From Trueperaceae bacterium (GTDB lineage: Bacteria; Deinococcota; Deinococci; Deinococcales; Trueperaceae), in NCBI GenBank assembly GCA_965215565.1, contig CBDCDZ010000004.1, positions 2,816,001 through 2,880,000 on the forward strand: a stretch of 64,000 nt of DNA, in the 5' to 3' direction. Shown piece by piece: positions 7,143-62,867 of this stretch (position 1 is the stretch's first letter; each line of letters begins with the position of its first letter). The position numbers and the translations under genes were made by a program. Under the pieces are notes generated by a model that was given only the letters and a program-made list of their open reading frames with translations, searched no databases and had not been told where the DNA came from.

Positions 7143-7253
7143 TAGTGATTTTGTTAGAACACTAGAGCGAACGGCCGCAGGTGTTATCACAAAGGTGTGA
7201 GCCAAACATCGCTTTGTAGAGTGAGAGCGTTTGTGACCAGATAATACCTGCTA
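7143..7253 (+). mobile_element. 111-bp MITE-like element, copy A (degenerate, no inserts)
   Basis: exactly 111 bp; internal GCAGGTGTTATC pairs with terminal GATAATACCTGC; ends ACCAGATAATACCTGCTA. Confidence 0.7.
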
Positions 7254-7502
7254 TCACGCCTGAATCGGTCCACGCGGTACGCTCTCCAACTCCTCTTCAT
7301 CCCCATCCGCCACCGCGTACCCCGTCTGCAAGCCCATCAGATAGCCGAGCTTGAGCATGAACATAATCGTGTCGGCGTCCCCTTGCGCGATGCGCTCTAA
7401 AACGTACTCTCTCGTCCCTTCAGGCAACTCTACGTCAGCGATTTCCTCGTCGTGCCGCCCTTTCATCTCCTCTAAAAAGGCGCGGATGGCTTCTTTACTC
7501 AT
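7254..7502 (-). CDS. ddrH: DdrH-like small protein
   Basis: LPEG...GDADTIMFMLKLGYLMGLQTGYA resembles Deinococcus DdrH (recalled, not searched); overlaps the mgsA stop. Confidence 0.5.
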   Translation of the reverse strand: MSKEAIRAFLEEMKGRHDEEIADVELPEGTREYVLERIAQGDADTIMFMLKLGYLMGLQTGYAVADGDEEELESVPRGPIQA

Positions 7503-7905
7503 TCGTAGCTCCTGCTTCTACTATATCTTGCTCCAACTGCTCCTCCAACCAAGCGATGACCGCCTCAGCACTCCCCAAGTTCGTCGCTAAGGGTATCTCG
7601 TGTACGTCGCAAATGCGCATCAGCGCGGATACGTCAGGCTCGTGCGGCTGCGCGGTCAAGGGGTCGCGGAAGAAGATGACCGCCATGACCTTCTCCTCGG
7701 CGATGCGTGCGCCCACCTGCAAATCGCCCCCTTGCGGGCCGGACATCAGCCTTTCAACCTTTAAGTGACCTTTCGTTTCCAACATGCCGCCCGTGGTGCT
7801 CGTGGCGATGAGGGGGAATTTGCGTAAGATGTCGGCGTGGTCTTTGGCGAAAATGGCAAGGTCCAACTTTTTCTTATCATGTGCGATGAGGGCGACGGCT
7901 TTCAT
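7495..7905 (-). CDS. mgsA: methylglyoxal synthase
   Basis: ALIAHDKKK, SGPQGGDLQVG, FFRDPLTAQPHEPD. Confidence 0.97.
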   Translation of the reverse strand: MKAVALIAHDKKKLDLAIFAKDHADILRKFPLIATSTTGGMLETKGHLKVERLMSGPQGGDLQVGARIAEEKVMAVIFFRDPLTAQPHEPDVSALMRICDVHEIPLATNLGSAEAVIAWLEEQLEQDIVEAGATNE

Positions 7906-8239
7906 GCTCTAGTGTACGGCACTTTGGTTGAGGGGGCTGTCTGTGGAGAAATGGAGAGAGGTTGAGGCTCGAGGTTTTATAGAGGTGGAATCAAGAAATT
8001 GCTACAGTTTCAAGATGTCAGACAAGCAGCTTCCGCTCGTTCGCCCACCGCCACCAACGACAAGCTGACCCGCTGACGTGCTGAGAGGCTACCTAAACGC
8101 CGCCGCCAAACCTCTTGCGCCACCACGTCACTGCAACCCCCAACGAAAGGACTGAATCCTTTTGGTCAAGAGAGGGGAGAAAAGCTGTGTAGGACGGGAA
8201 CGTGAAGAGGTTGACAGGGGGAAATAGGGGGTTTTAGGT

Positions 8240-8268
8240 GGGATAGGGATAGGGATAGGGATAGGGAT
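8240..8268 (+). repeat. (GGGATA)4-GGGAT tandem repeat
   Basis: five GGG tracts with 3-nt linkers. Confidence 0.9.
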
Positions 8269-8312
8269 GTACTCTCTTATCAGTCATTAGTTTTGTAAAT
8301 GGAGATTTTAAG

Positions 8313-8567
8313 ATGACTACTAGCAGAATCGAACGCCAAGCTTCACGTTTTCAACTGTTCCAAGAGGGATTTGTTCCCTTAGAGAATAGTTGGGTTTCGG
8401 GGTACGACCCCGAAACCGGTAGATACAATCGCCACGCGGCGATTGTAAGCGAATCCCCCTCGGGATTTGCCTACTATTTCAACGGATATCATGGAGAAGG
8501 TAAAACCTTCTCCGAAGCTCGAGAGGCTTTCGACAAGGCCTACGAGGAGTATTACAACTCCCACTAG
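8313..8567 (+). CDS. hypothetical protein (low GC, orphan-like)
   Basis: GGAG RBS, 84-aa ORF, followed by a terminator. Confidence 0.65.
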   Translation: MTTSRIERQASRFQLFQEGFVPLENSWVSGYDPETGRYNRHAAIVSESPSGFAYYFNGYHGEGKTFSEAREAFDKAYEEYYNSH

Positions 8568-8603
8568 GCAAAATTTAAGACCTAGTTTTTCCGACTAGGC
8601 ACT

Positions 8604-8639
8604 AAGATACTCAGTTTTACGACTCGAGTATCTTTTTTT
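8604..8639 (+). terminator. intrinsic terminator
   Basis: AAGATACTC...GAGTATCTT followed by a T-run. Confidence 0.65.
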
Positions 8640-8775
8640 GTCCTCTTGCTGTGTGTTTCAGATCGTACAAATAGGGTTTAACGCTATCTCCCTAGACTCC
8701 TCCAGGCTTCGCCTCAACCTCTTGGGGCTCGAGGCTCAGTCGTGCAGGGGGTGGGGCTCGAGGCTCTACAGGGTG

Positions 8776-9087
8776 TCAAGTGGACGATTTTAGATGGGAT
8801 TGGAGGGACTCGAGTGACTCGGTGCTCACGTCTGGCGTAGCCGGGGTTCTAGCTTCCAGAAAAGCCCGCACCTCTTCCTCGCTCGCTCTAGGTGTGTCTT
8901 CTAAATAGCTGTGAAACGCTTCTGTCTGCGCCTCAACCTCTTCGTCAGTACGTTTTCTAAGACCAAGAGTGCTGCTTTGAGCGAGGGTGTAGACGACGTA
9001 CTGGTTGAGCGAGACGCCCTCGCGCTTCGCGGCTGCTCTAAGTTGTTCGTGCAAGGAGTTGGGGAGCCTGAGCGTCAAGCGGGTCAT
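8776..9087 (-). CDS. HicB-like (RHH) antitoxin
   Basis: LTLRLPNSLHEQLRAAAKREGVSLNQYVVYTLA. Confidence 0.8.
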   Translation of the reverse strand: MTRLTLRLPNSLHEQLRAAAKREGVSLNQYVVYTLAQSSTLGLRKRTDEEVEAQTEAFHSYLEDTPRASEEEVRAFLEARTPATPDVSTESLESLQSHLKSST

Positions 9088-9144
9088 CGTGTGTCACCTG
9101 CCAATCTTTCTACAACTGGAGCTTTATTTCAGACCCAAGGCACC

Positions 9145-9540
9145 TCACCACACTATCTCTACTTCGTACGAGGCGAACAGCGCGTCGCTGGTGACGATGG
9201 GCAGGTGCTCCAACTGCGCCTGCGCGATGAGCATCCGGTCGAAGGGATCGCGGTGATGGCGCGGCAGGGCTCCGGCGCGAAGCGCGTGCTCTGGGGTGAT
9301 GACGAGCACATCCGCTTGGAGCCGCTCTAAGTGAGAGCCGAAGCCCGCTACCACTTGCTCCGCGCCTCCCAACTTGCCGAGCGCGTGCTTGATGGCGATT
9401 TCCCAGGCGCTTACGCTGCTGACTAAAAGCTGCGTGTCAGGGTCGCGCAACCGCTTAAATGCTTCCTGGCTTAGGTCATCTGGTGAGAGCAGGGCCCAGA
9501 GTAGTGCATTTGTATCCAGCAGGAGGCGGGCTATTCCCAA
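9145..9540 (-). CDS. VapC/PIN-domain toxin
   Basis: LLDTNALLW, SAWEIAIK, HRDPFDRMLIAQA. Confidence 0.92.
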   Translation of the reverse strand: MGIARLLLDTNALLWALLSPDDLSQEAFKRLRDPDTQLLVSSVSAWEIAIKHALGKLGGAEQVVAGFGSHLERLQADVLVITPEHALRAGALPRHHRDPFDRMLIAQAQLEHLPIVTSDALFASYEVEIVW

Positions 9541-9752
9541 GCCTCGAGTTCGTCGTCACTTAACGGCTCGAAAAAGCTCGCTGGGACCTCTCCCTCCACG
9601 AAGCCGAACTCGCGCGGCTTGCGCGCTAAGGGTACAAGCTTAGCGTAGGGCTCGCCCCCTTTGGCGAGCACGATCTCCTCGCCTGCCTTGACGCGCTCCA
9701 AGAGCTTTGAGAGGTGGGTCTTCGCCTCGTGCACGTTGATAGTCTCTGGCAT
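9531..9752 (-). CDS. Phd/YefM family antitoxin
   Basis: INVHEAKTHLSKLLERVKAGEEIVLAK; start moved to ATG 9752 after a GAGGAGG RBS. Confidence 0.92.
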   Translation of the reverse strand: MPETINVHEAKTHLSKLLERVKAGEEIVLAKGGEPYAKLVPLARKPREFGFVEGEVPASFFEPLSDDELEAWE

Positions 9753-10084
9753 TGTGCCTCCTCTTAGTCTACTTAGTTTAGCATAGGTAGCCGCTGCTTC
9801 TCGAGAAAGATAACCGGGGTCTGGGTCCTCTTTAGACTTTGGGCTAGTGGGTTGGGACTCGAGGACGTAAGGCACAAGAGAAGGCACCTCTCAAGGGGTG
9901 TGCCGCAAGAGGTGCCTTCCGCTTCGCTGGGGGAAGCTGAGGTGAGTGTATACCCGTTGCTGTTCTCGTTGTGGCGCTAAGGGCTCGAGGCTGAAAGTTT
10001 TCTCGTTACCTCGCCCTTCGAATCAATCTGGTCACGCTCTTTGTGGCTTCGCTTGTATGTAAGCGGCGATATGTCCATATGAAC

Positions 10085-10113
10085 TTGTAAATACGATGAA
10101 TCTCCCTTACAAT
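10085..10113 (+). promoter_or_regulatory. leaderless promoter overlapping a TTGTAA...TTACAA inverted repeat
   Basis: TTGTAA-17 bp-TACAAT, 7 nt before ATG 10121. Confidence 0.55.
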
Positions 10114-10120
10114 TTAAGAT

Positions 10121-10480
10121 ATGGCGACGCTTTGGAAACTCAAATCCTTTTTGGACGAGCACGGGCTGAGCGCTAACGCGGTCTCTGAGCGGACCAAGGG
10201 GAAGCTGGCGCGTAACTCGGTCTATAACCTGCTTAAAGCGCCGCGCAGCGTCCGTTTGGAAACATTGGACGCTCTCATCCCAGCGCTCGAAGAGATGACC
10301 GGGCAGCGTGTGAGCGTGACCGACCTCCTCGAGTACGAGCCCGATAACAGACCGCTGGACGACCCCTTCACAGCGCTTATTGGCGCGTTCGACCATCCGG
10401 GCGCGCCCGCAGACATGAGCACGCGGCACGGTGAATACGCCGCCGCTGCGCTGCAAGAGAGCCTTGACAGGCGTTCTTGA
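10121..10480 (+). CDS. Cro/C1-type HTH protein, putative antitoxin
   Basis: WKLKSFLDEHGLS...NSVYNL...RLETLDAL...DLLEY; C-terminal DPFTALIGAF...DMSTRH antitoxin-like tail; overlaps the PIN gene. Confidence 0.75.
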   Translation: MATLWKLKSFLDEHGLSANAVSERTKGKLARNSVYNLLKAPRSVRLETLDALIPALEEMTGQRVSVTDLLEYEPDNRPLDDPFTALIGAFDHPGAPADMSTRHGEYAAAALQESLDRRS

Positions 10481-10887
10481 AGGGCTTACTCGTCGATACG
10501 GGCTACCTCATCGGCTTGGTTTCGCCCCGCGACCAATATCACGCGGCGGCGGTGGCGACCCTCAGCGCTCTGCGCAGGCGGCGCGTCAGCGTGCACTGTC
10601 CGCTTGGGTCAGCTCTAGAACTGCATAGAAACCTCCTCTACGTCAAACCGCCACGTATTCAGATGGCGCAGAAAGCGGTAGGGGGCGTTCTCGCTGTCTA
10701 TCCGCTCGCCACGCCCCAAAGGGCAGACGTTGAGGCGGGTCTCGCAGCGTTAGCCCGCTACGGCGACCAGCCCATCAGCTTAGTTGACGCAACTACGGCG
10801 AGCATGGCTAAGCGCGAAGGGCTAGGTGTACTGACGTTTGACGTGCGGCACTACAGGTTGCTAGGGGCAGACGTTTACGAGGAATAA
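10477..10887 (+). CDS. PIN-domain toxin
   Basis: LVDTGYLIGL..RDQYH, ISLVDA, LTFDVRHY. Confidence 0.85.
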   Translation: MKGLLVDTGYLIGLVSPRDQYHAAAVATLSALRRRRVSVHCPLGSALELHRNLLYVKPPRIQMAQKAVGGVLAVYPLATPQRADVEAGLAALARYGDQPISLVDATTASMAKREGLGVLTFDVRHYRLLGADVYEE

Positions 10888-11070
10888 AATAGGTTTTACC
10901 TTCTCGGGTTTTAGCGGCTTATCTCAACGCCCTCACGGGTTCTCGTTGGCGTGGCTGAGGGTGCTTGTGGCTTATATTGACCTCGAGAATACAAGGCGAG
11001 CGGTCTGTGCTGCAAGTCGCTAGGGCTGCGTGAGTTTGGGTAAGGTCATGGACCGAAGAGAGACACGCCG

Positions 11071-11194
11071 CTTTTGCCTAGTGATTAGAGGAGGGAGGGC
11101 AAAAGGAAAGGTACCGAAACGGGAAGTTTCAGTACCTTTTAGGTAGCACGAGGGTAAATCGTAGTACCTGTAGGGCAGCCCGGTTGGGGTGCCC
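11071..11194 (-). ncRNA. candidate structured 3' RNA of four back-to-back stem-loops
   Basis: stems at 11194-11173, 11169-11141, 11139-11107 and 11105-11071; two mismatches read as G-U only on the minus strand. Confidence 0.4.
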
Positions 11195-11201
11195 GTAAAA
11201 A

Positions 11202-13685
11202 TTAGTTCACGCGGAAGATCACCTGAACGCAAGGTTCATCACCGATGGGATCGGCTTCTCCCTGCTCTTCAAGAGCAATCACTCCACGGCGCGCATAGAG
11301 GCGCAACAACCGCAAAGAGGTAGACTCGCGGCAGTCCGCGCTCCACCATTCGCCGTCGTTACAGCGCTCTAATAGCGCACGCAACAGCACGTTAGAATGC
11401 TGTTGGTATTCGGGTAAAACGGCCAAATCCGCGATGTAGCGGTTGGCACTATCAAAGGTGGCGTACCCGATAACGCCAGCTTCTTCATGTAGGAGCACAA
11501 GGCTTTGGCTGGTAGCCCCGGCTGTGGACACATAGTCCCAGCCTTCGGGGTACACAGCCTCAGCGATGTACTCGGCAGCGTCGAGGTCCTCCTCCAGTCC
11601 CCCGCGCACCCAGACCATTGACTGGCCTTGGATGATTGCAGGGGCGGAGGGGTTCTCCGCTACCAGAACTTGATTTTTTGAGTCGGAGTAGTCCTCCTCG
11701 CCGTACCCCTCTGGAAGGGGTAGAGCTTCGGTGGCTTCCCACCGACTCAGATCGAGGTCGCTCAGACCTGTGCCGATAGTTACCTTGCGGCAACCTTCAG
11801 CGCAGAGGTGCTGAGCAACCTCTTCATAAATTTGCGCAATGACATTGTGTTGGTTCGGGGACAAGCCCTTCGCCTCCACATTATCAAAGCAAACGGACCG
11901 AAATCCGTCGTGCTGGGTTTGCCAAGCCCAGCTCCCAGCTAGAATTTCGCCGTCCTCTTCGATGACAAACAACTGGCTGAAAACGTCAGCCACGGTGCTC
12001 ACCGCGCAGGCGGCACCGAAGCCCTCGAAATGTTGACAGCAGTTCGTGTACTGTCCAAAAAATCCGACTCTTACGTCGGACCGAGGGAGAAAGCGGCCAA
12101 CATAGCCGCCGACTTCCCAGCGCTGGGTGGAGTCGAACGGCTCAGCCACATTTTGGCCGTCCAGATATATCTGCTCGAAAGCAGAATAATCTAATTCTGC
12201 AACGCCCCAATGAGCGGCTTCTAAGGCAAAAGCCCCATGCCGCTGCCCCACGTACTTGCGGGTGCGGCAGGCCGCCAACAGCTCTTTCCAGGGAAGCTTA
12301 CGCTCCTCCTGGGAGAGGTCAGCCCAGTTCTTGGAAACAATTTCCAATTCTGGTAGGGGGCGCGTGCCATTGCGGAACAGCACATGTTCCAACCCTTTGA
12401 GGGCGGCTGGCCCTTCCCTTTGGGGCAGCCAGTAGGATGCGTCGTGGCCGGAACGGCCTAACGCCGCCTGCTTTCGCAGCCACTCACCCCACCGCTTTCC
12501 GAAGGTCACAGCGAGGTAAAGCCCGCTGTGACCGTACCAAGCTAGGTCGGTCCAGTCGATGTAACTATCCCACTCCTCAGAGTGGAGCGCTTCAGTCGCC
12601 TTCTTCCAAGCACTACTTTTCAGGCCAATGATTTGGCCCGGAAGTGCCGCGAAGGCCAGCGCCTTCACCTGTTCCGGTGGCAAAGCCTTGCCGTGGATGG
12701 CAAAAGCCACCCGACGGCGGGTCGCCTCATTGTCCGGCAGGTCGTTTGCAACGGCAGCTAAGCCACCGTTGCGACAGGCTTCATTGAAGCCGTGCCAGAA
12801 ATTTAGCCGCACCTGGCGGTTACGTCGCCAGTGCGCCGGGCTCACCTCATTGGCGAGGCGGGTGGCAACCGCCACCGCCACGAGGCGCTTTTTGAGTGGA
12901 AGACGCCCTAAACGGACGGACTCCCGCTTCCAAGGACGAAAGACGGGCGACATCCGCCACATAGTCGCCGCCGCGACGAGGTCGCGGGGTCGCCCTGGGC
13001 GGCAGAGGTCCACCGACTCGTTCAGGGCGACTTGCGCCTTGACCCAAAGGGGTAGGCGCTTAAATATCTTCGCTGTCGCTACAGCGAAGACTCTAACGGG
13101 GTCGCTATCCCCCTTGATTTTCTCCTCGAGCTGGAGAAAAGCTCGAGCGTCCTCGCCGGTGCGACACCCGGCAAGGTAGAGTTTATCGACCACCGCCGTA
13201 CTGGGCCTGGGACGGAGTGCGCCGACTATCGCCTGGCGCACTCCGTACTCCTCGCGCAGCTTCCCGAAGTCGGGAAGAGGAAGAAGTTGTACTTCCTCCT
13301 CGAATTCATCTGCCCCGAAGTCTTCTTCGACCTCCTCGGGGTATTCCTCGATTTCCTCGAGATATTCGAAATCTTCGGGGTCTTCTTTGACCCCGTCGGC
13401 CTCCTCGAGCCGACGAAGGTAGGCGTGAGCCAGTACCCACGCCTGTGCGTCTCCCCGGACTATCATCCGGGCTCCAGCTTCGGCCCGTGACAGGCCGAAG
13501 CTGGACATTCCCCTCCTTTCTATCTCCGCCCAAGCGAAGAAGCGCTCCCACGCTTCTTCTGCTGATTGTGCCCTTTGGCACATAAATTTCATGTCAGTGG
13601 CAATGAAACCACCACTGACAATGATCTCCCGCTGGGCGGGAGGTAGGGCAGAGCGTTTTAGAAAATCTTGGATTTCGATATACAT
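11202..13685 (-). CDS. large multidomain protein with a TNCCQH...SWAW...FDNVE domain and a C-terminal GNAT-like domain
   Basis: open frame of more than 820 codons; C-terminal IGYATFD..YIADLAVLPEYQ GNAT motif; start uncertain (the ORF-track start 13832 lies inside a terminator, ATG 13685 chosen). Confidence 0.7.
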   Translation of the reverse strand: MYIEIQDFLKRSALPPAQREIIVSGGFIATDMKFMCQRAQSAEEAWERFFAWAEIERRGMSSFGLSRAEAGARMIVRGDAQAWVLAHAYLRRLEEADGVKEDPEDFEYLEEIEEYPEEVEEDFGADEFEEEVQLLPLPDFGKLREEYGVRQAIVGALRPRPSTAVVDKLYLAGCRTGEDARAFLQLEEKIKGDSDPVRVFAVATAKIFKRLPLWVKAQVALNESVDLCRPGRPRDLVAAATMWRMSPVFRPWKRESVRLGRLPLKKRLVAVAVATRLANEVSPAHWRRNRQVRLNFWHGFNEACRNGGLAAVANDLPDNEATRRRVAFAIHGKALPPEQVKALAFAALPGQIIGLKSSAWKKATEALHSEEWDSYIDWTDLAWYGHSGLYLAVTFGKRWGEWLRKQAALGRSGHDASYWLPQREGPAALKGLEHVLFRNGTRPLPELEIVSKNWADLSQEERKLPWKELLAACRTRKYVGQRHGAFALEAAHWGVAELDYSAFEQIYLDGQNVAEPFDSTQRWEVGGYVGRFLPRSDVRVGFFGQYTNCCQHFEGFGAACAVSTVADVFSQLFVIEEDGEILAGSWAWQTQHDGFRSVCFDNVEAKGLSPNQHNVIAQIYEEVAQHLCAEGCRKVTIGTGLSDLDLSRWEATEALPLPEGYGEEDYSDSKNQVLVAENPSAPAIIQGQSMVWVRGGLEEDLDAAEYIAEAVYPEGWDYVSTAGATSQSLVLLHEEAGVIGYATFDSANRYIADLAVLPEYQQHSNVLLRALLERCNDGEWWSADCRESTSLRLLRLYARRGVIALEEQGEADPIGDEPCVQVIFRVN

Positions 13686-13819
13686 AACTTTACCCGCTTC
13701 TACGGCGGGTCCTAATTTAGTTGGTAGCCGTATTGCTACCTCCTCCACCCTAAACCTTTCTCCAACAGCGCGTGAGAATAAGGATAAACAGCGTGCAGAA
13801 CGGCGCAAACCACACAACC

Positions 13820-13853
13820 AAAAAAAAGACACCCCTTTGTAGCGAGGGTGTCT
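13820..13853 (-). terminator. intrinsic terminator after the NUDIX gene
   Basis: GACACCCT-N8-AGGGTGTC followed by a T-run on the minus strand. Confidence 0.7.
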
Positions 13854-13938
13854 TAATATCCTCTTCCGTAGAGATGAGAGGACGGAGTTTGGTAACGCGG
13901 TGGCTCCTCGTCCGCGCGGATGTTACTTATTCTCTAGG

Positions 13939-14472: not shown

Positions 14473-14661
14473 GTTGTTATCCTATATACGTTTCTACACG
14501 TAGTATGACAGGCTCGAGCCCCCCACGCGCAGCTAAGCCAGGGCGCAAATGAGGTTATCCAACACTGCTAGCCCTACCATCCTCTGGTTTAGCCGCCTCT
14601 ACACAGGTCTAAAGCTAAAGGTTGACGTTCTGAATACAGTCCTTTAGGTACATCTCGAGCC

Positions 14662-14808: not shown

Positions 14809-14821
14809 AAGCCGCTGCGCT

Positions 14822-15256
14822 TCACGAGATTGTTGTGCCTTCTGCAGGATATCGCCCCAGCGCCTGCAACGCTTCGCGCTCCAAGAGCCTCTCGCGGATG
14901 TTGAGTTGCAGCAGGCGTTCGGTCACACGAGCTACATCTGTAAGCGGCGCAATGTGCACGCCGCTCAGGTCAAAGTGACTCATCCAGCGATCCTCTCGGG
15001 GGTTGTAAAAGCGGACGAACGCATCGGTGCGCCGGTCGATAGAGCCTACATCGCTCCCCTTGGCACGGTTACAGACTATACAAGCAAGCGCTAAATTATC
15101 CTCTTCGGTCGCTCCGCCGTGCTTCTCGCTGATGATGTGGTCGATTTGCAGCGCGTAGTAGCTATCGTCTTCGTGAATCAAGCAGTATTCGCAGCATTTT
15201 CTCGCCCTATCTGCCACGTACTGGCGCAGGTCAGCAGAGATATACGCTTTACTCAC
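14822..15256 (-). CDS. HNH endonuclease (putative toxin)
   Basis: CCEYC, IDHIISEKHGG, NLALACIVCNRAKG, FYNPR. Confidence 0.9.
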   Translation of the reverse strand: MSKAYISADLRQYVADRARKCCEYCLIHEDDSYYALQIDHIISEKHGGATEEDNLALACIVCNRAKGSDVGSIDRRTDAFVRFYNPREDRWMSHFDLSGVHIAPLTDVARVTERLLQLNIRERLLEREALQALGRYPAEGTTIS

Positions 15257-15482
15257 CCAGGAGACGCCTAGCCTTCGCCTTCGCTAAACGCATGACGTGC
15301 TCGAGCTGCATGTACTGGTCTAGCTCACGGCGCTCGTCCTCGGACAACCCCTGTGCCCTCTCCCTCTCGACGAGTTCTTCGAGACGCGCCTGCGCCTGTT
15401 CAGAGGGGCGAAAGGAGACGACGCTCGAGGGGTTCGCGCCCGCGATTAGGTCAACGATCTCTTGGTAAGCGAGGATTGCCAT
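15249..15482 (-). CDS. small helical protein, putative antitoxin of the HNH gene
   Basis: FRPSEQAQARLEELVER...ELDQYMQLEHVMRLAKAKA; TACAAT 6 nt before ATG 15482; overlaps the HNH start. Confidence 0.75.
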   Translation of the reverse strand: MAILAYQEIVDLIAGANPSSVVSFRPSEQAQARLEELVERERAQGLSEDERRELDQYMQLEHVMRLAKAKARRLLGE

Positions 15483-15559
15483 AGCCCTATTGTACCTTGT
15501 AGCAGGTATGCTCCACCATTCGTTTGCACCATTCAACGATAAGGAAGAGCCCTCAGCCC

Positions 15560-16042
15560 CTACTCCAACAAGCTCACCACCCGCGCGTCAAAGCGGAACC
15601 TCTGCGCAGGTCCCAACCTCTCCAAGGAGAAGCCCGGATGAGCTGGGTTGATGAGGTAGTTGTGCTCCTGGGGTAAGACCGCACTCGGCACGCGCAAGAG
15701 CAACGAAGCCTGCCGCGCCGCCCAGTCGTCGCCTATCTGCTGGGTAAGTTTTGGCGGCGGCGCGTGCCAATTCGGGGGGACCGGCTTGCGGTTCCAGTCC
15801 TCGGGAAGCTGCTCGTCAGAGAGGCGCAAAGCGTCCGCCTCCTCAAAGTGAAATTCGTGGACCCACAATCCTTCTAAGCCGCGCACTGAGAGGGTGTGAA
15901 CGAGCCGCTCCAACGAGGCGAGGGCGAGTGAGCCTGAGGTGTAGACAACGCGGGTGCCGGGGCTGTTCCAGCGCCCCCCGGCCCTGGCTGCGCCAACGCC
16001 GCTAAACGCATCCGCAGCGTGGTGGTAGGGCTCGCTTACCAA
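15560..16042 (-). CDS. RES-domain toxin (NAD+ phosphorylase type)
   Basis: GGRWNSPGTRVVYTS..LASLE, VPSAV, NYLINPAHP; the true start may be a few codons upstream. Confidence 0.92.
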   Translation of the reverse strand: MVSEPYHHAADAFSGVGAARAGGRWNSPGTRVVYTSGSLALASLERLVHTLSVRGLEGLWVHEFHFEEADALRLSDEQLPEDWNRKPVPPNWHAPPPKLTQQIGDDWAARQASLLLRVPSAVLPQEHNYLINPAHPGFSLERLGPAQRFRFDARVVSLLE

Positions 16043-16053
16043 TCGGTAGCATG

Positions 16054-16473
16054 TCAGAGCACAACACCCTCAGCAATTTGCCGCAAGTAGCGCTCCACAG
16101 CCTCTAAGCCCGGCGCAGTGCGGGCGAGGGTGAGGGGCGACGTGCCGAGGTTGGGGTTAGGCTCTCTCAGCCAACGCCGTGCGTCCTCAGGATGCCCGAT
16201 GGCTTGCTCAGCCTGCTCGAGCAAACGCCGCACCTCGTACACGCGGCTCGACTCCGCCGCGCTCAGGCGCTTACCGCGCCGCCGCGCCAAGGTGCCGCCG
16301 CTCAGTCCAAGTACATCGGCTAACTCGCGCTGGGTCAGCCCTAAATCCTGCGCTAACGTCTCGAAGGCGGCGAAAGGATAACCCGCCTCAACCTGACTGA
16401 TGAGTTGAGGCAGGGAGGGTTGCGGCTTTGGGCTCACCGCGTTCACGTGCGGTACGAAAACATTCATGCCCAT
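16054..16473 (-). CDS. Xre/MbcA/ParS antitoxin
   Basis: HTH plus ARRWLREPNPNLG..PL C-terminal domain; adjacent to the RES gene. Confidence 0.9.
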   Translation of the reverse strand: MGMNVFVPHVNAVSPKPQPSLPQLISQVEAGYPFAAFETLAQDLGLTQRELADVLGLSGGTLARRRGKRLSAAESSRVYEVRRLLEQAEQAIGHPEDARRWLREPNPNLGTSPLTLARTAPGLEAVERYLRQIAEGVVL

Positions 16474-16634
16474 ATGATAGCACGAAAAGGACCGTTTGAA
16501 TTTTGTATATGAGGTGTGCCTTCGGTGACGGGTACATTCGGACGCTACGAACAGCGAATAGGGACGAATTTCGCCCTGGGTTCCACGTCACCCCGGTCAT
16601 AGGGCTCTAGGGGCGGCTCGAGGTGAGTACGCCG

Positions 16635-17063
16635 CTAAGCAAGGGGCAGCGCGACCTGAGCCAAATCTGTTTGGGAGAAGTCCTCACCGACGAAGGCCAG
16701 CACCTCATCTCGGTTGGCGGCTAGCGCGTAAACGACCACATCGCCGAAGTTCAGCCCTGCCGGGTGCCCCTGCCCCTTGCCGTAACGGGAGTACGCCCGC
16801 TGCGCAAGCCGCGCTTGCGCCGCGCCAAAAGGGACAACTTCCGCGCCGAGTGTATCTAAAAGCGCATCTATGACCGTCTCGGGGTCCTCCTCAGCAACTG
16901 AGGAGCCGCCACGCCTTTGGCGGCCTTTAAGAACGGCGTGTACCTCTACGAGCGACACCGCCGAGAGGGTGAGACGCGGCTGCGAGGCCAAAAAGCGCAG
17001 GCTCTCCTGCCAGCCCGTTTCCCGAAAGACAATATGAATAAGGACGCTCGAGTCAACAACCAT
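16635..17063 (-). CDS. VapC toxin
   Basis: MVVDSS, RYGKGQGHPAGLNFGD, FVGEDFSQTD. Confidence 0.92.
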   Translation of the reverse strand: MVVDSSVLIHIVFRETGWQESLRFLASQPRLTLSAVSLVEVHAVLKGRQRRGGSSVAEEDPETVIDALLDTLGAEVVPFGAAQARLAQRAYSRYGKGQGHPAGLNFGDVVVYALAANRDEVLAFVGEDFSQTDLAQVALPLA

Positions 17064-17086
17064 GTAAGTTCAAACAACTGCGCACG

Positions 17087-21435: not shown

Positions 21436-21846
21436 TAGCACTTCCAAAACATACTGAGACAGAGTGTCGCTTCTCCCGGAGGTGCGCAAAGCCTCCGTCA
21501 GGAAGGGCTAGGCAAACGGTTACGTAAGTTTCCCGTAGGGAAAGTTTTGGCAATGCCAAAGGTCTCAGACGAAGAACTGTTCCGCTAGGTTTCGCCTGAG
21601 AGCGGAGTTTCACCTCACAGCGTGCGTGCTAATTTCTGAAAGCTGCGCAGCAGTCTGAAAGCCCGCAGGGACGAAGTTTTCCGATTACGTAGTTTTTGCG
21701 CAGCAAAAGGAAACAGTGTTTCTACAGTGAGGGCGTCTCTTCGCCTAGCGGCTAGCGGGAGCATATGCGACAGCGGTCCACGCGACTTAACTTTGTTCAC
21801 TCAAACCAGCTCCGAACGTTAGTGAGGCAGGCTTTGATACCTGTTA
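21436..21846 (+). mobile_element. MITE-like element, copy B, expanded to 411 bp by inserted hairpin modules
   Basis: TAGCACTTCCAAAACATACTGAGACAG ... GTGCGTGCTA ... CTCAAACCA ... TGATACCTGTTA. Confidence 0.75.
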
Positions 21847-24003: not shown

Positions 24004-24135
24004 TAGCAATCAACATAAGTACTGATTGGAATAGCGCAAATATCATTCTCAAATGTGCGTGCTGCACGGTGTTCTACATCGTGAGAGCGTTGCTCCGCAA
24101 AACTTACGTACACTCAAACCAAATGATACTTGCTA
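24004..24135 (+). mobile_element. MITE-like element, copy C (one 22-nt insert)
   Basis: TAGCAA...TTGCTA ends; GCAAATATCATT/AATGATACTTGC stem; GTGCGTGC; CTCAAACCA. Confidence 0.75.
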
Positions 24136-33399: not shown

Positions 33400-33510
33400 T
33401 AGCAGTTCCACGACACACTGAGACAGTTGAACGCAGGTATCATCTCTTAAAGTGCGTGCTAAACAGCGTTTCACAAAGTGAGAGTGTCTCTGACCAGATG
33501 ATACCTGCTA
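33400..33510 (+). mobile_element. 111-bp MITE-like element, copy D (reference, no inserts)
   Basis: TAGCAGTTCCACGACACACTGAGACAG...GCAGGTATCATC...GTGCGTGCTA...CTCTGACCAGATGATACCTGCTA. Confidence 0.85.
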
Positions 33511-33558: not shown

Positions 33559-33734
33559 TTGCAGGTATCATCTGGTCGCGAGCGCTCTCACCGAAGAGAG
33601 CGTCTTCTAGCACGCACACTGAAGATGAAATTCCGCTCTCAGGCGAAGCCGTCCCGCTAGGCTTCGCCTGAGAGTGGGATGGTTCTTCGTCTGAGACTTG
33701 CGACACTTTATCTCAGTTATGTCGTGGTGCTGTG
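33559..33734 (-). mobile_element. MITE-like element, copy E (reverse, about 65 nt of inserts)
   Basis: the reverse complement carries ACGACATAACTGAGA, GTGCGTGCTA and ACCAGATGATACCTGC. Confidence 0.8.
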
Positions 33735-33736: not shown

Positions 33737-33847
33737 TAGCAGTTCCACGACATACTGAGACAGTTGAGCGCAGATATCATCCCCCGAAGTGTGTGCTAGA
33801 CTGTTCATTTCTCGCTAAGGGTATCTCTGACCAGATGATACCTGCTA
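33737..33847 (+). mobile_element. 111-bp MITE-like element, copy F
   Basis: same blocks and length as D, with a different 26-nt centre. Confidence 0.85.
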
Positions 33848-38682: not shown

Positions 38683-38859
38683 TAGCAGGTCTCAGCCTTT
38701 CTTAGGCGAAGCCTAGCGGATTGGCTAGCTGGACCTCATCTAGTCTGAAACACTCTCACTGTAGAAAACGTTGATGAGTGCCCACTTTTGGAGATGAAGA
38801 CCAACCAAACCTCGTCTGAGAACTGCGGTAATCTGTCTCAGTGTGTTCTGGAACTGCTA
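38683..38859 (-). mobile_element. MITE-like element, copy G (reverse, 66 nt of inserts)
   Basis: the reverse complement begins TAGCAGTTCCAGAACACACTGAGACAG and ends CTGAGACCTGCTA. Confidence 0.8.
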
Positions 38860-46878: not shown

Positions 46879-46891
46879 AAGAGGTAAACCA

Positions 46892-56772: not shown

Positions 56773-56788
56773 AGGCCTGGTTGTAAAG

Positions 56789-57544
56789 ATGACGCTCATC
56801 GTTTTTGGCTACGGACCCATTGAGGCGAACAAGAATTTCAACCTCAATGTTTACGGACGCCTCAACGCGCTCGCAGCGGGAATGCTTTATCAACGTGACG
56901 AAACCGGGCGCATCGTCCCCACAGGTGGACGCACGGGCGGCGCGGGGCTCCCTTCCGAAGCGGAGGCGATGAAGCGGCATTTGCTACGCAACTTCGACCT
57001 CCCTGAAGAGGTCATCGTCTTAGAACACCAAGCGAGCGATACCGTCACCAACTTCGTTCACGTCGCGAATATTTTGGATGGTTTGGAGGCTCGAAGCAAT
57101 CTCACCTTCCTCGCCTTTGGCTTTCACTTGTCCCGCATCCGTCACCTCGCTGACCTCTTTGGCTTAGAAGGCGATTTCATCGCAGCGGAAGCGGTGGTTG
57201 GGGAACGCTCAGCGCGTCACCAGAAACTTTTACGGGACCTCTTGAATCTGGACAACGAAACATATCTCAAACTCCTCACGGGTCAAGTGCGCGGAATGCG
57301 CGGCTTGAAAGAGATACCCGAGTATTGGCTGCCGCCAGCGGCGCAGCTTCAGAGTGAACGGCGGCTCGAGTCCATCATGCAATCCATGCAGGTGCAGACT
57401 TTCTTGCGCTCACGGGGACTCAACCCAGCCGCGCCCACTGACTTCAAAGCTGTTCTTTCCGCTATCCCGCGCCGCTTTCCTGAACCGAAACCAGAGGATA
57501 GGAAGAGGGCTGTGCGCGAAGCTCGAGAGGTCAGCCTTGCCTGA
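56789..57544 (+). CDS. YdcF/DUF218 family protein
   Basis: TGGRTGG..SEAEAM, LEHQASDTVTN, FHLSR. Confidence 0.75.
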   Translation: MTLIVFGYGPIEANKNFNLNVYGRLNALAAGMLYQRDETGRIVPTGGRTGGAGLPSEAEAMKRHLLRNFDLPEEVIVLEHQASDTVTNFVHVANILDGLEARSNLTFLAFGFHLSRIRHLADLFGLEGDFIAAEAVVGERSARHQKLLRDLLNLDNETYLKLLTGQVRGMRGLKEIPEYWLPPAAQLQSERRLESIMQSMQVQTFLRSRGLNPAAPTDFKAVLSAIPRRFPEPKPEDRKRAVREAREVSLA

Positions 57545-57974
57545 AGTCGTCTTAGCCTTGGATGTGGGCGACGCCCGCATCGGCTTAGCGAGGGGTGAAG
57601 TCGGCTCGGCGTTCGCCTTTGGGCGCGGCTTCATCACCCGCAAAAAACTCAGAGATGACGTGGCTGAACTTCAAGAGGTCATGGGGCGCGAGGGCGCGTC
57701 GCTTCTCGTCATCGGCTTGCCTAAGCGGAGCGACGGAACAGATTCGAAGCAGACGGTGAAGGTGCGCAGTTTTTCCAAGGAGTTGGAGAAGCGCGGCTTC
57801 AGCGTCGTTTTAGAGGACGAACGCTTCACCACCCGCATCGCCACGCAGAACGTCACGCAGAGCGGGCTGCCCAAGACCAAGCGCCAGAGCAAGGGGCGTG
57901 TGGACGAGGCGTCGGCGGTCCTGATTTTAGAGAGTTATCTCGCTAGGCTTTCGTTCGAAAATGAGGTAGGCTAG
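57537..57974 (+). CDS. ruvX: RuvX/YqgF putative pre-16S rRNA nuclease
   Basis: LALDVGDARIGLA, IGLP, DERFTT, VDEASAVLILE. Confidence 0.92.
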   Translation: MPEVVLALDVGDARIGLARGEVGSAFAFGRGFITRKKLRDDVAELQEVMGREGASLLVIGLPKRSDGTDSKQTVKVRSFSKELEKRGFSVVLEDERFTTRIATQNVTQSGLPKTKRQSKGRVDEASAVLILESYLARLSFENEVG

Positions 57975-57979
57975 CTCAC

Positions 57980-59044
57980 GTGAGTGACCTATCAACCTCT
58001 TCACCGCGTCAGCGCTCTTCTCGACCTCTTGTGCGCGGCGTGCTCGTCATCATCTTTTTCGCGCTCGCCCTCGTGTTAGCAGGTATCCTCTTCGTGCGTC
58101 AGCAGCTCACGCCTGTAGACGAGGGCGCGGCGCAGACCACCGAGTTCGAAATCTTGCCGGGTTGGGGCGCGTCGCGGGTGGCGAGCGAACTTGCTGAAGC
58201 GGATTTGGTAAGGAGCGCGCGTTTCTTCTCGCTCTGGCTGCGCTTTGAGGGAACGGACACGCAGATCGGTGAAGGGCTCTACGATCTCTCTCCAGCGATG
58301 AGCGCCCACGAGCTTGCCGAAGCGTTGGAGGCGGGCGGGCGTCCGAGGGTCGCGGGCGTGACGATTCCCGAAGGCTTTCGCAGCGTGAGAGTGGCTTCGC
58401 GACTGGCGGAGGCGGGGCTCGGCGCGGAAGAGGTGCTGATGCAGAGCATCCTCTCGCCAGGAGGATTGCGCCCGAGCTACGTCCCCGAGGGCGTCGGCTT
58501 GGAGGGCTACCTCTTTCCTGCGTCTTACGAATTTCCGGTTCGCAGCACCGCTGTAGACGCCCTGGACGTCATGGTGCAGCGTTTCGAGCGCGAACTCACG
58601 CCGGAGATCGAAGCGGCGCTGACGTCCCTCAACTTGAGCGTCCACGACTGGGTCACGCTCGCCAGCATCATCCAAGCCGAAGCGGGCAACCACGAAGAGA
58701 TGCCCGTGATTGCAGGCGTCTTTTTGAACCGCTTGGACGAAGGGATGCCGCTGCAGTCCGACCCGACGGTGGCGTACGGTCTCGGCAAGAGGTTGCCTGA
58801 ACTCGACAGAAACGCAGGCGACTTCGAGGCGGAGCACCCTTGGAACACGTATGTCTTTGCAGGGCTGCCGCCGAGTCCGATTGGCAACCCTGGACGGGCG
58901 GCGCTACGGGCTGTCTTTACCCCTCAGCGCGTCAACGAGGCGAACGAACCTTATTTCTACTTTTTACACGGGCGCGGCGGCGAGTTTCGCCCTAATGTGA
59001 CCTTCGAGGCGCACAACCAGGACGTGCAGGAGTTTTTGCGCTGA
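57980..59044 (+). CDS. mltG: endolytic transglycosylase MltG
   Basis: TIPEG, LEGYLFP, LASIIQAE, LQSDPTVAY, GLPPSPI. Confidence 0.95.
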   Translation: MSDLSTSSPRQRSSRPLVRGVLVIIFFALALVLAGILFVRQQLTPVDEGAAQTTEFEILPGWGASRVASELAEADLVRSARFFSLWLRFEGTDTQIGEGLYDLSPAMSAHELAEALEAGGRPRVAGVTIPEGFRSVRVASRLAEAGLGAEEVLMQSILSPGGLRPSYVPEGVGLEGYLFPASYEFPVRSTAVDALDVMVQRFERELTPEIEAALTSLNLSVHDWVTLASIIQAEAGNHEEMPVIAGVFLNRLDEGMPLQSDPTVAYGLGKRLPELDRNAGDFEAEHPWNTYVFAGLPPSPIGNPGRAALRAVFTPQRVNEANEPYFYFLHGRGGEFRPNVTFEAHNQDVQEFLR

Positions 59045-59063
59045 GACAATCCTCGAGCCCCCT

Positions 59064-59465
59064 TCACTCAACGTCATAAAGCACTGAGCCTTCATACGGA
59101 GCTTCTAGTAGCGAGGCGAGCCTCGAGCCCAAATCTCCAACGTGCGCTTCCAACTTGTGACCGTTGGGGTCCGTGAAGTAGAGCGACGCGCCTTCGCTCT
59201 TATTCTCGTGCCAGCGCGACTCGGCGGAGATGACCTCTTCGAGTTGCCTCATCCCCTTCAGCGTCGTCGAAAAGGCGAGGTGGGTGTAGTCATCTCTAGG
59301 CGTAGTTGATGGGTCTAAGGTCAAACAGACCCAAGTATCACCGACTTCGAGATATGCACCCTTGTTCCAACGCGCCCGCAGCTTAAAGCCGATAGACGTG
59401 TAGAAACCTAGCGATATGCCCAAATCTTTTACGGCGAGCGTGATGTGGTTGAGCCCGGTCAGCAT
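59064..59465 (-). CDS. FosA-like VOC thiol transferase (fosfomycin resistance family)
   Basis: GLNHITLAV, GAYL..GDTWVCL, DYTHLAF, ENKSEGASLYFTDPNGHKLE.HVG.L.SRL. Confidence 0.8.
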   Translation of the reverse strand: MLTGLNHITLAVKDLGISLGFYTSIGFKLRARWNKGAYLEVGDTWVCLTLDPSTTPRDDYTHLAFSTTLKGMRQLEEVISAESRWHENKSEGASLYFTDPNGHKLEAHVGDLGSRLASLLEAPYEGSVLYDVE

Positions 59466-59485
59466 GTCTTTATTTTACGCTCAAC

Positions 59486-60154
59486 TTACCTTATCTGACG
59501 GCGGCGCAAAAAGGTGGACAAAGCGAGGCTCGAGACCAATAAGAGTGCCGACGCGAGCAAGTACCAGACGTTGATTTGGACGCCCTCTGTACTGAATTCC
59601 CCCTCGAGCGACGCCCCTGCTAGCACCCCGACGAGCAGCCCAGGAATCCCGCCGATCAATGTGGCGAGCATAAACGCCGTGAAAGAGATGCGCAGTGCGC
59701 CAGCGGCGTAATTGACCAAGTCGCCGGGCAAGAAGAGGAAGCGGCTCAGCAGAACGCTCTCAAAGGCGCGGGTGCGCAGCCGCTCGGTCCAGTATGGGCT
59801 CAGTCCTGGAATATCGCCCGTTCTGTTTCCCGCGAGATAGTGCCCGAAGAGGTACGCGAGCGCTGTGGAGAAAAGCGACGCGACGAGCGCGTAGAGGGAG
59901 CCCCACACCGCGCCGAAGAGAAAACCCGAGGCGACGGTTAAGAGCGTAATGGGCACGAGTAAAAAGGGACGAATGAGGTAGACGACGAAAAACACAAGGG
60001 GTCCCGTGACGCCGCCCCGCATGAACGAGAGCCAGCCTCCGAACAGCTCGAGCAGCGTCTCGTCTCGTCTTTGAACGTAGAGCCAGAAGAGGACGAGCGC
60101 CGTCAACCAGAGCGCGAGTATCACTTTAGACCACACCGAACGCTGAACTGTCAC
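59486..60154 (-). CDS. TVP38/TMEM64 (VTT/DedA) membrane protein
   Basis: RPFLLVP, GFLFG, RFLFLPGDLVNYAAG; GTG start inferred. Confidence 0.88.
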   Translation of the reverse strand: MTVQRSVWSKVILALWLTALVLFWLYVQRRDETLLELFGGWLSFMRGGVTGPLVFFVVYLIRPFLLVPITLLTVASGFLFGAVWGSLYALVASLFSTALAYLFGHYLAGNRTGDIPGLSPYWTERLRTRAFESVLLSRFLFLPGDLVNYAAGALRISFTAFMLATLIGGIPGLLVGVLAGASLEGEFSTEGVQINVWYLLASALLLVSSLALSTFLRRRQIR

Positions 60155-60799
60155 CTCTAAGAGTATGCCACGTGGAGGCGGCACGCTTAGGTCAGTGCGC
60201 AGCTTGCTCGAGTACGAGCAATACAGGCTGAACCGTAATGCTCGAGCCTGTGGACCTTCGCGGCTGATGGGCAGGGCAACTGTAAACTGCAAGTGAAGCA
60301 TCTGACAGTCGAGCTATCCTTCGACGTTGAGGCTGAGGAGGTAGACGCTTTAGCGATGACGTTGCCGACCTCTTGACTCGAGAGGTCAACCGAGCAGCTA
60401 TCTGTTTACGACGTGCTAGACGCACCTCATCTCATTGAGAACGGTTTAGTGAAGGCTCAACCCTTGTTCTAGGGGTGGTCTCTTTTCTAACCTCTTGTCA
60501 AAATTTTCTCAGTGCGCTTATACTTGCAAAGTTGTCCTGCAGCACGCATAATAGTGACTGCGCGGCGGCGTTAGCCCCTGCACCCTCCAACTCAAACCCG
60601 TCTCCTGCGTTGCTGAAACGTCCAACTTCAGTAGCGCCGGTCCATTCTTTTAAGCGGGCACGAAACGTAAACAACGTGTCTCTCGAGTACGTTGTTGTCC
60701 CTTGCTGCCTTGTTCTAAAAGCTCTTCCACTCCGCCCTTCGCTTCATCTGATCCTACATCTGATCCTTCGTCCTCTCCCCCTATTTTAGAGGTTCATCT

Positions 60800-62278
60800 A
60801 TGATTTCAATCACCAAACGCGAGTGGTTCAGCAACCTGCGCGGCGACATCTTAGCAGGCATCGTCGTAGCGCTGGCGCTCATCCCCGAAGCTATCGCCTT
60901 TTCGATTATTGCGGGCGTTGACCCGGCGGTAGGGCTCTACGCCGCGTTTTGTATTTCCGTCGTGACGGCGTTTGTGGGCGGGCGTCCAGGCATGATCAGC
61001 GGGGCGACGGGCGCGATGGCGCTCCTCATGACGGGGCTCGTGGCGAATCACGGGCTCGAGTACCTCTTTGCCGCCACCATCTTGACGGGTGTGATCCAGA
61101 TCGCGTTCGGCGTGACCAAACTGGCGCGGTATCTCAAGTTCGTGCCGCGCAGCGTCATGATCGGCTTCGTCAACGCGCTCGCGATTCTCATCTTCATGGC
61201 ACAGTTGCCGCAGTTTATCGGGGCGAACTGGCAGATGGTCGCGCTTGTCGCGGCTGGGCTGGCGATTATCTACGGGCTGCCCTACCTCACCGAAGCCGTG
61301 CCGAGTGCGCTCGTGGCAATCGTCGCGCTGACTGCGGTAGCGATCTTCGCAGGCGCAGACGTGCGCACCGTGGGCGACATGGGCGAACTGCCCACCGCGC
61401 TTCCCTTCTTCGGATTGCCCGCTGTGCCTTTTACACCCCAAACGCTCGCCATCATCTTTCCGGTAGCGCTCACGCTGGCGATTGTGGGGCTTTTAGAGTC
61501 GCTCCTCACCGCGCAGATCATCGACGATCTAACCGACACAACCAGCAGCAAAAATTGGGAATCGCAAGGGCAGGGCGTCGCGAACATCGTGACGGGCTTT
61601 TTCGGCGGGATGGCAGGCTGCGCCATGATCGGGCAGTCTGTTATCAACGTCACCTCGGGCGGACGGACTCGTTTATCCTCGCTGGTTGCGGGCGTGGCGC
61701 TCATCTTTATGATCCTGACGCTGCAGCCCTGGGTGCGCCAGATTCCGATGGGCGTCCTGGTTGCGGTGATGGTCATGGTGTCTTTAAGCACCTTCGATTG
61801 GTCGTCGTTACGCAACCTTGCCGTGATGCCCAAGAGTGATAGCATCGTGATGATTGCAACCGTCGTGACAACCGTCTGGACGCACGACCTCGCGCAAGGC
61901 GTACTCGTCGGCGTGGTACTCAGTGCGCTCTTTTTTGCGCGGAAGGTGTCGCAGCTTTCAGGGGTCTCGAGCACCCTCAGCGGTGACGGCACCACGCGCA
62001 CCTACCTCGTTACCGGAGAACTCTTCTTCGTCTCGACGCAGGAGTTCGTCACGGCGTTCGACGTGCAAGAGGATTTGGAGCGCGTCGTCATCGACTTGAC
62101 GCGGGCACATCTCTGGGACGGCTCCGCCGTTGCCGCCCTCGACAAGGTTGCGATTAAGTTCATGCGGCGGGGTGTTCATGTCGAGCTGAGAGGTCAGAAC
62201 GAGGCGAGTGACGCGCTCATCTCGCGCTTGGCGGTGCATGACAAGCCGGGGGCGTTAGAGGAGTTGGTGTCGCATTAA
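60800..62278 (+). CDS. SulP family anion transporter with STAS domain
   Basis: [33 protein letters not shown]. Confidence 0.95.
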
Positions 62279-62353
62279 GCTAGTGGAAACAGCGTTTTTG
62301 GCTTCAATTACGAGGTCTGAGGTTAAAGGATTGAGAGGTTGTATAGCAAGTAT

Positions 62354-62550
62354 TGGCAGTTCCAAGACATACTGAGACGGATAAGCGCTTACGGAAGTTT
62401 TGGCAACGCCAAAGGTCTCATTGCGCAGCAATAGCGGGATTTCATCATCGAATGTGCGTGCTAGTTGGGCACTTTTCGCAAAGCGAAACGTTGTTTCATC
62501 TAGTGAGCGTGTTGCTTCGCACAACTTCGTACACTCAAACCAAATGATAC
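62354..62550 (+). mobile_element. MITE-like element, copy H (four inserts; right end fused to copy I)
   Basis: GCAGTTCCAAGACATACTGAGAC, GTGCGTGCTA, CTCAAACCAAATGATAC. Confidence 0.8.
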
Positions 62551-62661
62551 AGCAGGTATCATTTGGTTTGGGCCAATCTGAGAAGAGAAAACACGCTCTA
62601 GCGCTCACTTAATTGTGATGATACTTGCGTGATTCACGCTCAGTACTTGTGTTGATTGCTA
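62551..62661 (-). mobile_element. MITE-like element, copy I (reverse, no inserts)
   Basis: reverse complement TAGCAATCAACACAAGTACTGAG...GCAAGTATCATC...AAACCAAATGATACCTGCT. Confidence 0.8.
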
Positions 62662-62713
62662 TACTTCTTTCTCAGTCCTTTGTTCTTTAGATTTTCCGCT
62701 GGTCTTATTTTAG

Positions 62714-62867
62714 TAGCAGTTCCACGACACACTGAGACAGTTGAACGCAGGTGTCATCCCTTAAAGTGTGTGCTAATTACGAAGTTTTCCGCAGGAAACA
62801 GCGTTTCACAAAGTGAGAGTGTGCCTGACGGCGTACTTCGTGCACTCTGACCAGATGATACCTGCTA
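62714..62867 (+). mobile_element. MITE-like element, copy J (copy D plus 21- and 22-nt inserts)
   Basis: nearly identical to D apart from inserts at 62776-62796 and 62823-62844. Confidence 0.85.

Follow-up and report, generated by a model that had tools for sequence, protein, structure and literature searches.

A constant core with variable left arms: a probable IS630-dependent miniature transposable element of Trueperaceae

The element in the window and beyond

The stretch of DNA considered here (the window, 64,000 nucleotides of contig CBDCDZ010000004.1, assembly GCA_965215565.1, from a Trueperaceae bacterium) carries ten copies of a 111-base repeat, for which an earlier note, made from the sequence alone, had proposed a fixed geometry and a kinship with MITEs (miniature transposable elements bearing inverted repeats). 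All ten copies were confirmed, their coordinates being right or one to two bases off (copy I occupies 62550-62661 and lies within the 3' end of copy H), and the family was identified as non-coding and dispersed, with approximately 300 copies in the source genome G000, which comprises a 4.39-Mb chromosome and three small contigs. The element is built from a constant 80-bp core with 14-bp terminal inverted repeats and a left arm of 21 or 31 bp, whereby the arm type predicts the target duplication, i.e., three variable bases or TA. Within the window the copies and their parts locate as follows.

Copy A, 7143-7253, plus strand: an old, diverged copy with intact core and decayed 5' arm; profile match to positions 15-111
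Copy B, 21436-21846, plus strand: arm I; 411 bp owing to nested hairpin modules
24-nt module of family D at site 98 of copy B, 21810-21833, plus strand
Copy C, 24004-24135, plus strand: arm II; TA on either side
22-nt hairpin module of family B at site 88 of copy C, 24091-24112, minus strand
Copy D, 33400-33510, plus strand: insert-free, arm I, three-base duplication ATT
Arm of copy D (positions 1-31), 33400-33430, plus strand: matches the right end of a three-base-duplicating IS630 in genome G001
Internal block (positions 34-45) of copy D, 33433-33444, plus strand: target of family-A modules
3' inner box (positions 85-92) of copy D, 33484-33491, plus strand: covaries with arm positions 20-27, most clearly in arm Ib
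Invariant 3' end (positions 98-111) of copy D, 33497-33510, plus strand: the element's best-conserved stretch and the reverse complement of its internal block
Copy E, 33559-33734, minus strand: ends degenerate; internal block with nested modules of family A
Copy F, 33737-33847, plus strand: insert-free, arm I; flanks mismatch at one of three bases
Copy G, 38683-38859, minus strand: arm I, three-base duplication AAG; inserts in both block copies
Copy H, 62354-62549, plus strand: arm I, four modules; 3' end cut at TA by copy I
Family-A hairpin module in the internal block of copy H, 62417-62441, plus strand
Copy I, 62550-62661, minus strand: arm II; inserted at TA within the 3' end of copy H, TA on both sides
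Copy J, 62714-62867, plus strand: arm I, three-base duplication (TAG) and modules of 21 and 22 nt
21-nt family-B module at site 62 of copy J, 62777-62797, plus strand
22-nt module at site 88 of copy J, 62823-62844, minus strand

The layout shared by these copies holds genome-wide. A profile built from 147 insert-free copies retrieved 588 matches in G000, all of them chromosomal and none on the three small contigs, of which 259 are complete from one end to the other, 127 of these with a length of exactly 111 bp, while the lengths of longer end-to-end copies peak near 132-136, 154-159 and 176-181 bp. An anchored search of the chromosome yielded 290 distinct full-length copies, and control searches of the doublet-shuffled and the reversed chromosome gave no match each. 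The nearest-neighbour identity of 125 copies of 111 bp has a median of 95% and a maximum of 99%, and copy D has a 99%-identical twin elsewhere in the genome. The copies are mostly intergenic: by crude calls of open reading frames (ORFs) 15 of 418 matches with a complete 3' end lie mostly within ORFs; an apparent positional asymmetry relative to adjacent genes was accounted for by incomplete 5' detection. No Rfam family reached its gathering score in the window, and near copies D, E and F only six sub-threshold matches to miRNA precursors were found.

The element is restricted to one family, Trueperaceae by record titles. A left-end pattern was found in metagenome-assembled genomes of that title at 12 of 12 loci, copy D gave blast matches in three of 40 relatives, and the near-invariant 3' 19-mer is present in 18 of 128 family genomes, G000 among them. 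The two-block core pattern was identified in nine of 364 genomes of the phylum, every one from the own family, as well as at 33 metagenome loci, and was not found in five other families searched; a plasmid collection searched with copies B and D gave no match. The fixed geometry is real across genera, the spacing being 77 nt at 31 of the 33 metagenome loci and 76 nt at two.

Insertion scars and empty sites

Among 239 copies with intact termini, 112 are flanked by a three-base direct repeat outside the terminal TA, 75 by TA on both sides and 50 by neither, whereas shuffling yields a mean of 6.5 and a maximum of 13 three-base repeats. The duplicated triplets are variable (43 kinds in 161 copies) and reside in an A/T-rich, symmetric context. 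When the 290 full-length copies were sorted into motif classes, arms I and Ib were found with 157 three-base scars, no TA scar and 48 others or none, arm II with 67 TA scars, no three-base scar and seven without any, and 11 of the 290 copies were unclassified. Assignment by the nearest insertion sequence (IS) end gave the same picture: 111 of the 153 copies closest to a three-base IS end have a three-base scar and one has TA, while 74 of the 85 closest to a TA IS end have TA and one a three-base scar.

Empty sites were sought in 2 Mb of the relatives G001 and G002, whereby syntenic flanks were available for 46 of 306 G000 copies and 13 of 42 copies of the relatives. Of 19 resolved junctions, 11 are usable empty sites and eight are shared insertions, other inserts or poor alignments. 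For arm I the overlap was three bases in five sites and two in one; for arm II it was two bases in four sites and zero in one. The expectation of empty sites with a single TA thus holds for arm-II copies and fails for most copies, which duplicate three variable bases, so that a single TA as universal target is ruled out by scar counts and empty sites alike. The terminal TA is the element's own, and the duplication lies outside it. Both the mobility of the element and the link between arm type and target duplication are well supported.

Arms and partner IS630 elements

A full-length IS630 with matching ends, for which the earlier note had suggested to look, was identified in G001, G002 and G142 but not in G000. 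These partners are two-frame elements of 0.9-1.05 kb with the domains HTH_Tnp_IS630 and DDE_3, as expected for the IS630/Tc1/mariner group, and their ends start like the element. A three-base duplication is made by seven IS630 types (14 of 17 copies; in two of the remaining three the flanks have been exchanged) and a TA duplication by five (22 of 22 copies); the TA duplication typical of the group is hence found for the five types and arm II, but not for the seven types and arms I and Ib. Plasmid homologues of the partner transposases share 37-40% identity and are annotated as IS630 family transposases, and the profile of the partner transposases matches the structures of Sleeping Beauty and Mos1. 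The transposases of the two scar groups are only 39% identical. One segment of the catalytic domain is 26 residues long in each of the five TA types but 28 in six of the three-base types; in the seventh three-base type it has 35 residues, including a 7-residue insert, so that all seven share two extra residues as compared to the TA-type enzymes. By-eye motif resemblance suggests that this two-residue insertion may sit near the target-reading loop of Mos1 (PMC5481204), the segment being outside the Mos1 alignment. In a tree of 12 transposases the scar label needs two changes, and 27% of the bootstrap trees need one.

G142 alone holds at least 150 DDE_3 matches with many IS630 types of both scar groups in a 4.4-Mb genome. 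IS630 remnants beside two G000 copies were considered as partners and rejected, as their ends differ and one is merely interrupted by a copy. At L002 (G000:C4:1932313-1935762) two broken IS630 elements of other types adjoin, one of them interrupted by an element copy and by nested hairpin modules, and an orthologous empty site exists in L078; at L003 (G000:C4:410178-413588) an IS630 of a different end type lies within an IS3-like element.

Different IS630 elements have right ends that the arms resemble, positions 1-36 falling into classes, with a median of 21 of 26 positions agreeing with the best IS end in the three-base group and 19 of 26 in the TA group. The similarity spans the reverse complement of the last transposase codons and ends at the Cys of a C-G-Y motif, the first three bases of the internal block being the reverse complement of this last Cys codon. 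In six IS types the Cys codon locates to positions 34-36 from the right end, which equals the position of the joint in the element. One G142 type has it at 24-26, and two G142 copies identified by script carry a matching 21-bp arm with three-base scars, and a third such copy was seen besides; another 21-bp arm occurs in G079 with TA scars at four of four loci. A metagenome locus, L205, contains the bare 80-bp core without arm and with TA on each side. The consensus of arm I agrees by eye with the printed right end of ISY100 at 18-19 of 25 positions (PMC2170065).

Positions 37-111 are common to all arm types and match no IS interior; the 52-nt middle of six same-length copies from other genomes is 48-65% identical to that of copy D, its length being kept. 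These observations bear on an explanation by parallel descent, which holds that each subfamily is an independent internal-deletion derivative of its own IS630, or that arms drifted together with their diverging transposases through point mutations, without any swapping onto a shared core. This is improbable: besides the common core it leaves aside that middles are alike between arm classes about as much as within them (0.64 versus 0.67), that arm length tracks the position of the Cys codon in two IS geometries and that the partner transposases of the two groups diverge so far, even though a search for truly different arms on near-identical middles gave none (the ten closest pairs shown across classes are classification errors) and the scar label needs one change only on the element tree.

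A probable IS630-dependent MITE

As expected for a MITE, the element is short, non-coding, dispersed, mostly intergenic and multi-copy, it has target duplications and empty orthologous sites, and its ends resemble those of autonomous elements (21 and 19 of 26 positions for the arm, 15-19 of 26 for the 3' end). Near-symmetric terminal inverted repeats over the whole element are absent; terminal pairing is limited to positions 1-6 and 20-27, and the perfect repeat is that of positions 34-45 and 98-109. The MITE reading of the earlier note and its guess of an IS630 partner are supported by IS-like ends, scars and empty sites, though its account did not include the modularity of arm and core, the two target rules and the families of micro-inserts.

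Considering this, the element is quite probably an IS630-dependent MITE, in which a constant core with a variable left arm is moved in trans by IS630 (Tc1/mariner-type) transposases. Movement in trans by the partner transposase is likely, judging from ends and scars. An ancestral core with 14-bp terminal repeats is suggested to have captured IS right ends more than once, possibly by recombination or template switching at a 3-5-base overlap between the core end and the Cys codon. Each capture would hand the element to a new transposase, which would amplify it and set the scar, and in some lineages capture may have been followed by re-matching of the 3' inner box. The internal block would then be the former left end of the core, likely retained as a putative second protein-binding site, because arms of 21 and 31 bp keep it at a distance of two or three helical turns from the element's end; this phasing may also explain why other offsets are unseen. 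The modules of 20-26 nt are likely separate, much smaller mobile units that landed in the element afterwards. What we infer from these comparisons is the capture of arms, their helical phasing and the part played by the two-residue insertion. A more far-reaching version is possible but doubtful: the core would be transposase-agnostic, its paired block suiting any IS630 transposase or recruiting a host factor, it would change its enzyme by grafting IS right ends, in helical phase (0, 21 or 31 bp), onto the Cys codon joint, the switch between TA and three bases would depend on a stagger set by the two-residue insertion of the transposase, and the block would serve as the specific landing site of a 25-nt mobile unit.

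Several points weigh against the dependence on IS630 partners as outlined. No transposition was observed, and a cognate transposase was not found in G000 by domain scans and a translated search with the G001 element; the three DDE_3 matches of this genome have other ends or are broken, HTH_Tnp_IS630 has no match in it, and G079 holds 32 core matches yet no DDE_3 match. The 3' end has no good match among the sampled IS ends, the best (19 of 26) being to the TA group. A clean arm-less core was seen once only and never in G000, no arm of corresponding length was found for the IS types whose Cys codon locates to 37-39 or 40-42, and one G142 copy has an arm like that of the 40-42 type which is nevertheless 31 bp long. 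Re-matching of the inner box is clear for arm Ib only, and a single clade of the three-base types is not established by the transposase tree. Finally, six metagenome loci (L197, L200, L201, L210, L211 and L219), some of which are probably the same site, have an arm-II-like end with the triplet TCA on both sides, and the two-scar rule is therefore not universal. At these loci, and also at L186 of G020, the duplication is at the centre of short palindromes, and a third target rule is possible for this subfamily.

The pairing of a MITE with its transposase is usually argued from end similarity only. Here, one core with several keys, each predicting the scar almost without exception, provides a natural experiment on the end positions which IS630 transposases read, and illustrates in what way an element without its own transposase can persist beyond each of its partners. 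The element works like RUP of Streptococcus pneumoniae, which is attributed to IS630-Spn1 (PMC2229807, PMC3049150), and like other IS630-dependent MITEs, but differs by asymmetric ends, exchangeable arms and two target rules. Both RUP and the present element are non-coding, about 110 bp long and present in more than 100 intergenic copies with IS630-like ends and target duplication (PMC2229807, PMC3049150), whereas the latter has two unlike ends, combines one core with the ends of several IS630 lineages and mostly duplicates three variable bases. With ISY100 and the IS630/Tc1/mariner group it shares ends of 24-27 bp starting with TAG and, in its partners, DDE_3 and HTH_Tnp_IS630 (PMC2170065, PMC5481204), and the TA group resembles ISY100 in duplicating a TA outside the element's own terminal TA. 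Integration of IS630/Tc1/mariner elements is described as strictly at TA with a 2-bp stagger (PMC5481204), from which the seven partner types duplicating three variable bases deviate; the family so described is in use for genome engineering, and the two-residue difference offers a direct handle on what sets the stagger. In the literature searched, which excludes ISfinder and several IS reviews, three-base IS630 duplications gave only unrelated or TA-only papers and Trueperaceae repeats no paper, so that an earlier description may exist; a 2024 MITE review (PMC10969869) lacks the terms IS630, chimeric and modular.

The stem formed by internal block and 3' end

The internal block was correctly noted to pair with the 3' end, as positions 34-45 and 98-109 are reverse complements separated by 52 nt. 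The compensated changes reported for this stem mostly have another origin. Of about 330 copies, 45 show joint changes in pair 37/106 and 43 in pair 45/98; since 98 covaries with 106 as well, these pairs mark one lineage, as do the changes in copy C, while the compensated pair in copy G arises from two hairpin inserts, one per block copy. As compared to the local consensus, 33 double changes were seen with 20 expected, some stemming from mis-assigned neighbours; leaving out positions 37, 38 and 45 and insert footprints, 21 double changes (19 of them Watson-Crick) oppose 10.1 expected, and the same set holds 132 and 57 uncompensated single changes (189 in total).

That the element is a structured RNA or single-stranded DNA selected on this stem, e.g., an mRNA-processing hairpin with incidental mobility, is highly improbable. 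The excess of double changes without the lineage pairs lends it weak support and the strongest pairs and most changes do not; the excess fits template switching between the inverted repeats or weak selection, the test ignores the shared ancestry of old copies, and RNA structure is not established by it. Plus-strand folding is modestly better than that of shuffles (z-scores of -2.2, -2.3, -3.2 and -1.6 for copies D, F, A and I), yet the best fold of the plus strands of F and I lacks the stem, and 156 of 334 copies have a plus-strand mispair at position 38. The spacing kept across genera and a slight sense bias (133 versus 97, p=0.02) would suit such an element, whereas inserts break the block at 115 internal sites and, for most of the resolved sites, the relatives do not share the position.

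Hairpin modules within the element

Inserts are present in 160 of the 290 full-length copies, mostly of 20-25 nt net and often nested, and locate near positions 22, 35-39, 62, 88 and 98. In a simple module, a head or tail that is fixed adjoins a short hairpin, the stem of which is variable in sequence yet paired. The two inner boxes are both hit by one family, at positions that mirror each other (22 counted from the left, 23 from the right). The invariant block is the site of family A, whose insertion adds 26 bases and takes away one; pattern counts gave 115 filled versus 163 exact empty internal sites and 13 filled versus 289 empty terminal sites. Family B also occurs outside the element, with 94 pattern matches (some double-counted) versus 29 in the shuffled genome; one family-B pattern gave nothing in metagenomes and occurs in three of 102 family genomes, all of the own genus.

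Identical modules are scattered over the element tree (FastTree, short alignment), where 42 carriers need 37 changes. The commonest module is confined to arm I (43 of 43), and its flanks resemble each carrier's own insert-free relative (0.93 and 0.87) more than other carriers (0.63 and 0.52; 37 of 39 carriers tested). Tree scatter and flanks following the host lineage point to repeated gain by site-specific insertion; homology-driven spread of this module by long conversion tracts, very short tracts aside, is unlikely since the flanks follow the host lineage.

The invariant block might alternatively be the site of a host protein or another enzyme rather than of the transposase, which would explain both its constancy and the landing of family A, and which can be combined with the IS630-dependent MITE reading. 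This is rather unlikely. The 3' 19-mer stays near-invariant in its 18 genomes in spite of varying arms, of 105 family-A modules found nearly all lie in the block or within one another, and short tandem copies of the 3' end exist at three loci; however, no candidate protein emerged, G000 has no match to a reverse transcriptase and G000, G001 and G002 no stand-alone Y1 transposase, and the resemblance of the 3' end to TA-group IS ends suffices to explain it. Tandem arrangements were seen in some old copies of G000 (G000:C4 ~179847-179950, ~2634236, two minus-strand loci), in which the 3' end with 4-8 flanking bases forms 3-5 head-to-tail repeats, and resembling pairs occur in G005 and G046.

No driver of the modules was found in searches for Y1 transposases (G000, G001, G002) and reverse transcriptases (G000, G002, G142). 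RAYT/Y1 or IS200/IS605 is not supported for want of a stand-alone Y1 transposase with the repeats, and reverse transcriptase was rejected for the lack of matches in G000, G002 and G142; matches to the latter exist in G001 and G020. The only Y1_Tnp of G000 (L001, G000:C4:3784734-3788051) lies within a 1322-residue frame resembling, by eye, a restriction-modification protein, with short tandem repeats nearby, and G001 has four copies (L157-L160) of a reverse-transcriptase frame of 618-637 residues that is absent from G000 and G002.

The small dispersed repeats (SDRs) of the cyanobacterium Nostoc were, as Elhai et al. reportedly found in 2008, nested in one another and in mini-transposons. The modules resemble them in size (about 20-26 nt), fixed sites, lack of target duplication, repeated gain and nesting; they differ in that they stem from a different phylum, are likened by features and not by sequence, and that family A replaces one host base. 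For SDR5 precise insertion (PMC4390886) and for Nostoc SDRs possible mobility (PMC2884548) have been described. SMR-A (small mobile repeats) of Haloquadratum walsbyi likewise comprises transposase-free repeats at fixed sites in other mobile elements without duplication, but is about 110 bp long with terminal inverted repeats, as compared to 20-26 nt and one hairpin here (PMC3119063). The hundreds of filled and empty copies constitute a ready panel for how SDR-like units of 21-27 nt move.

A 21-nt hairpin module also resides in frame in an IS630 catalytic frame of G001 (L043), adding seven residues, and another family of repeats, about 335 bp long, which has related ends and contains the same hairpin modules, is found near 2561549-2561887 and 2715396 of G000:C4. 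As for the surroundings of the copies in the window, the neighbouring genes are housekeeping genes by Pfam (uvrB, ppk, ribD, uvrA, dnaK, alaS and rpsF; 29 of 120 long ORFs scanned), and positions 14822-17063 carry an HNH nuclease, a RES/Xre pair and PIN-domain genes, i.e., a typical toxin-antitoxin-like island.

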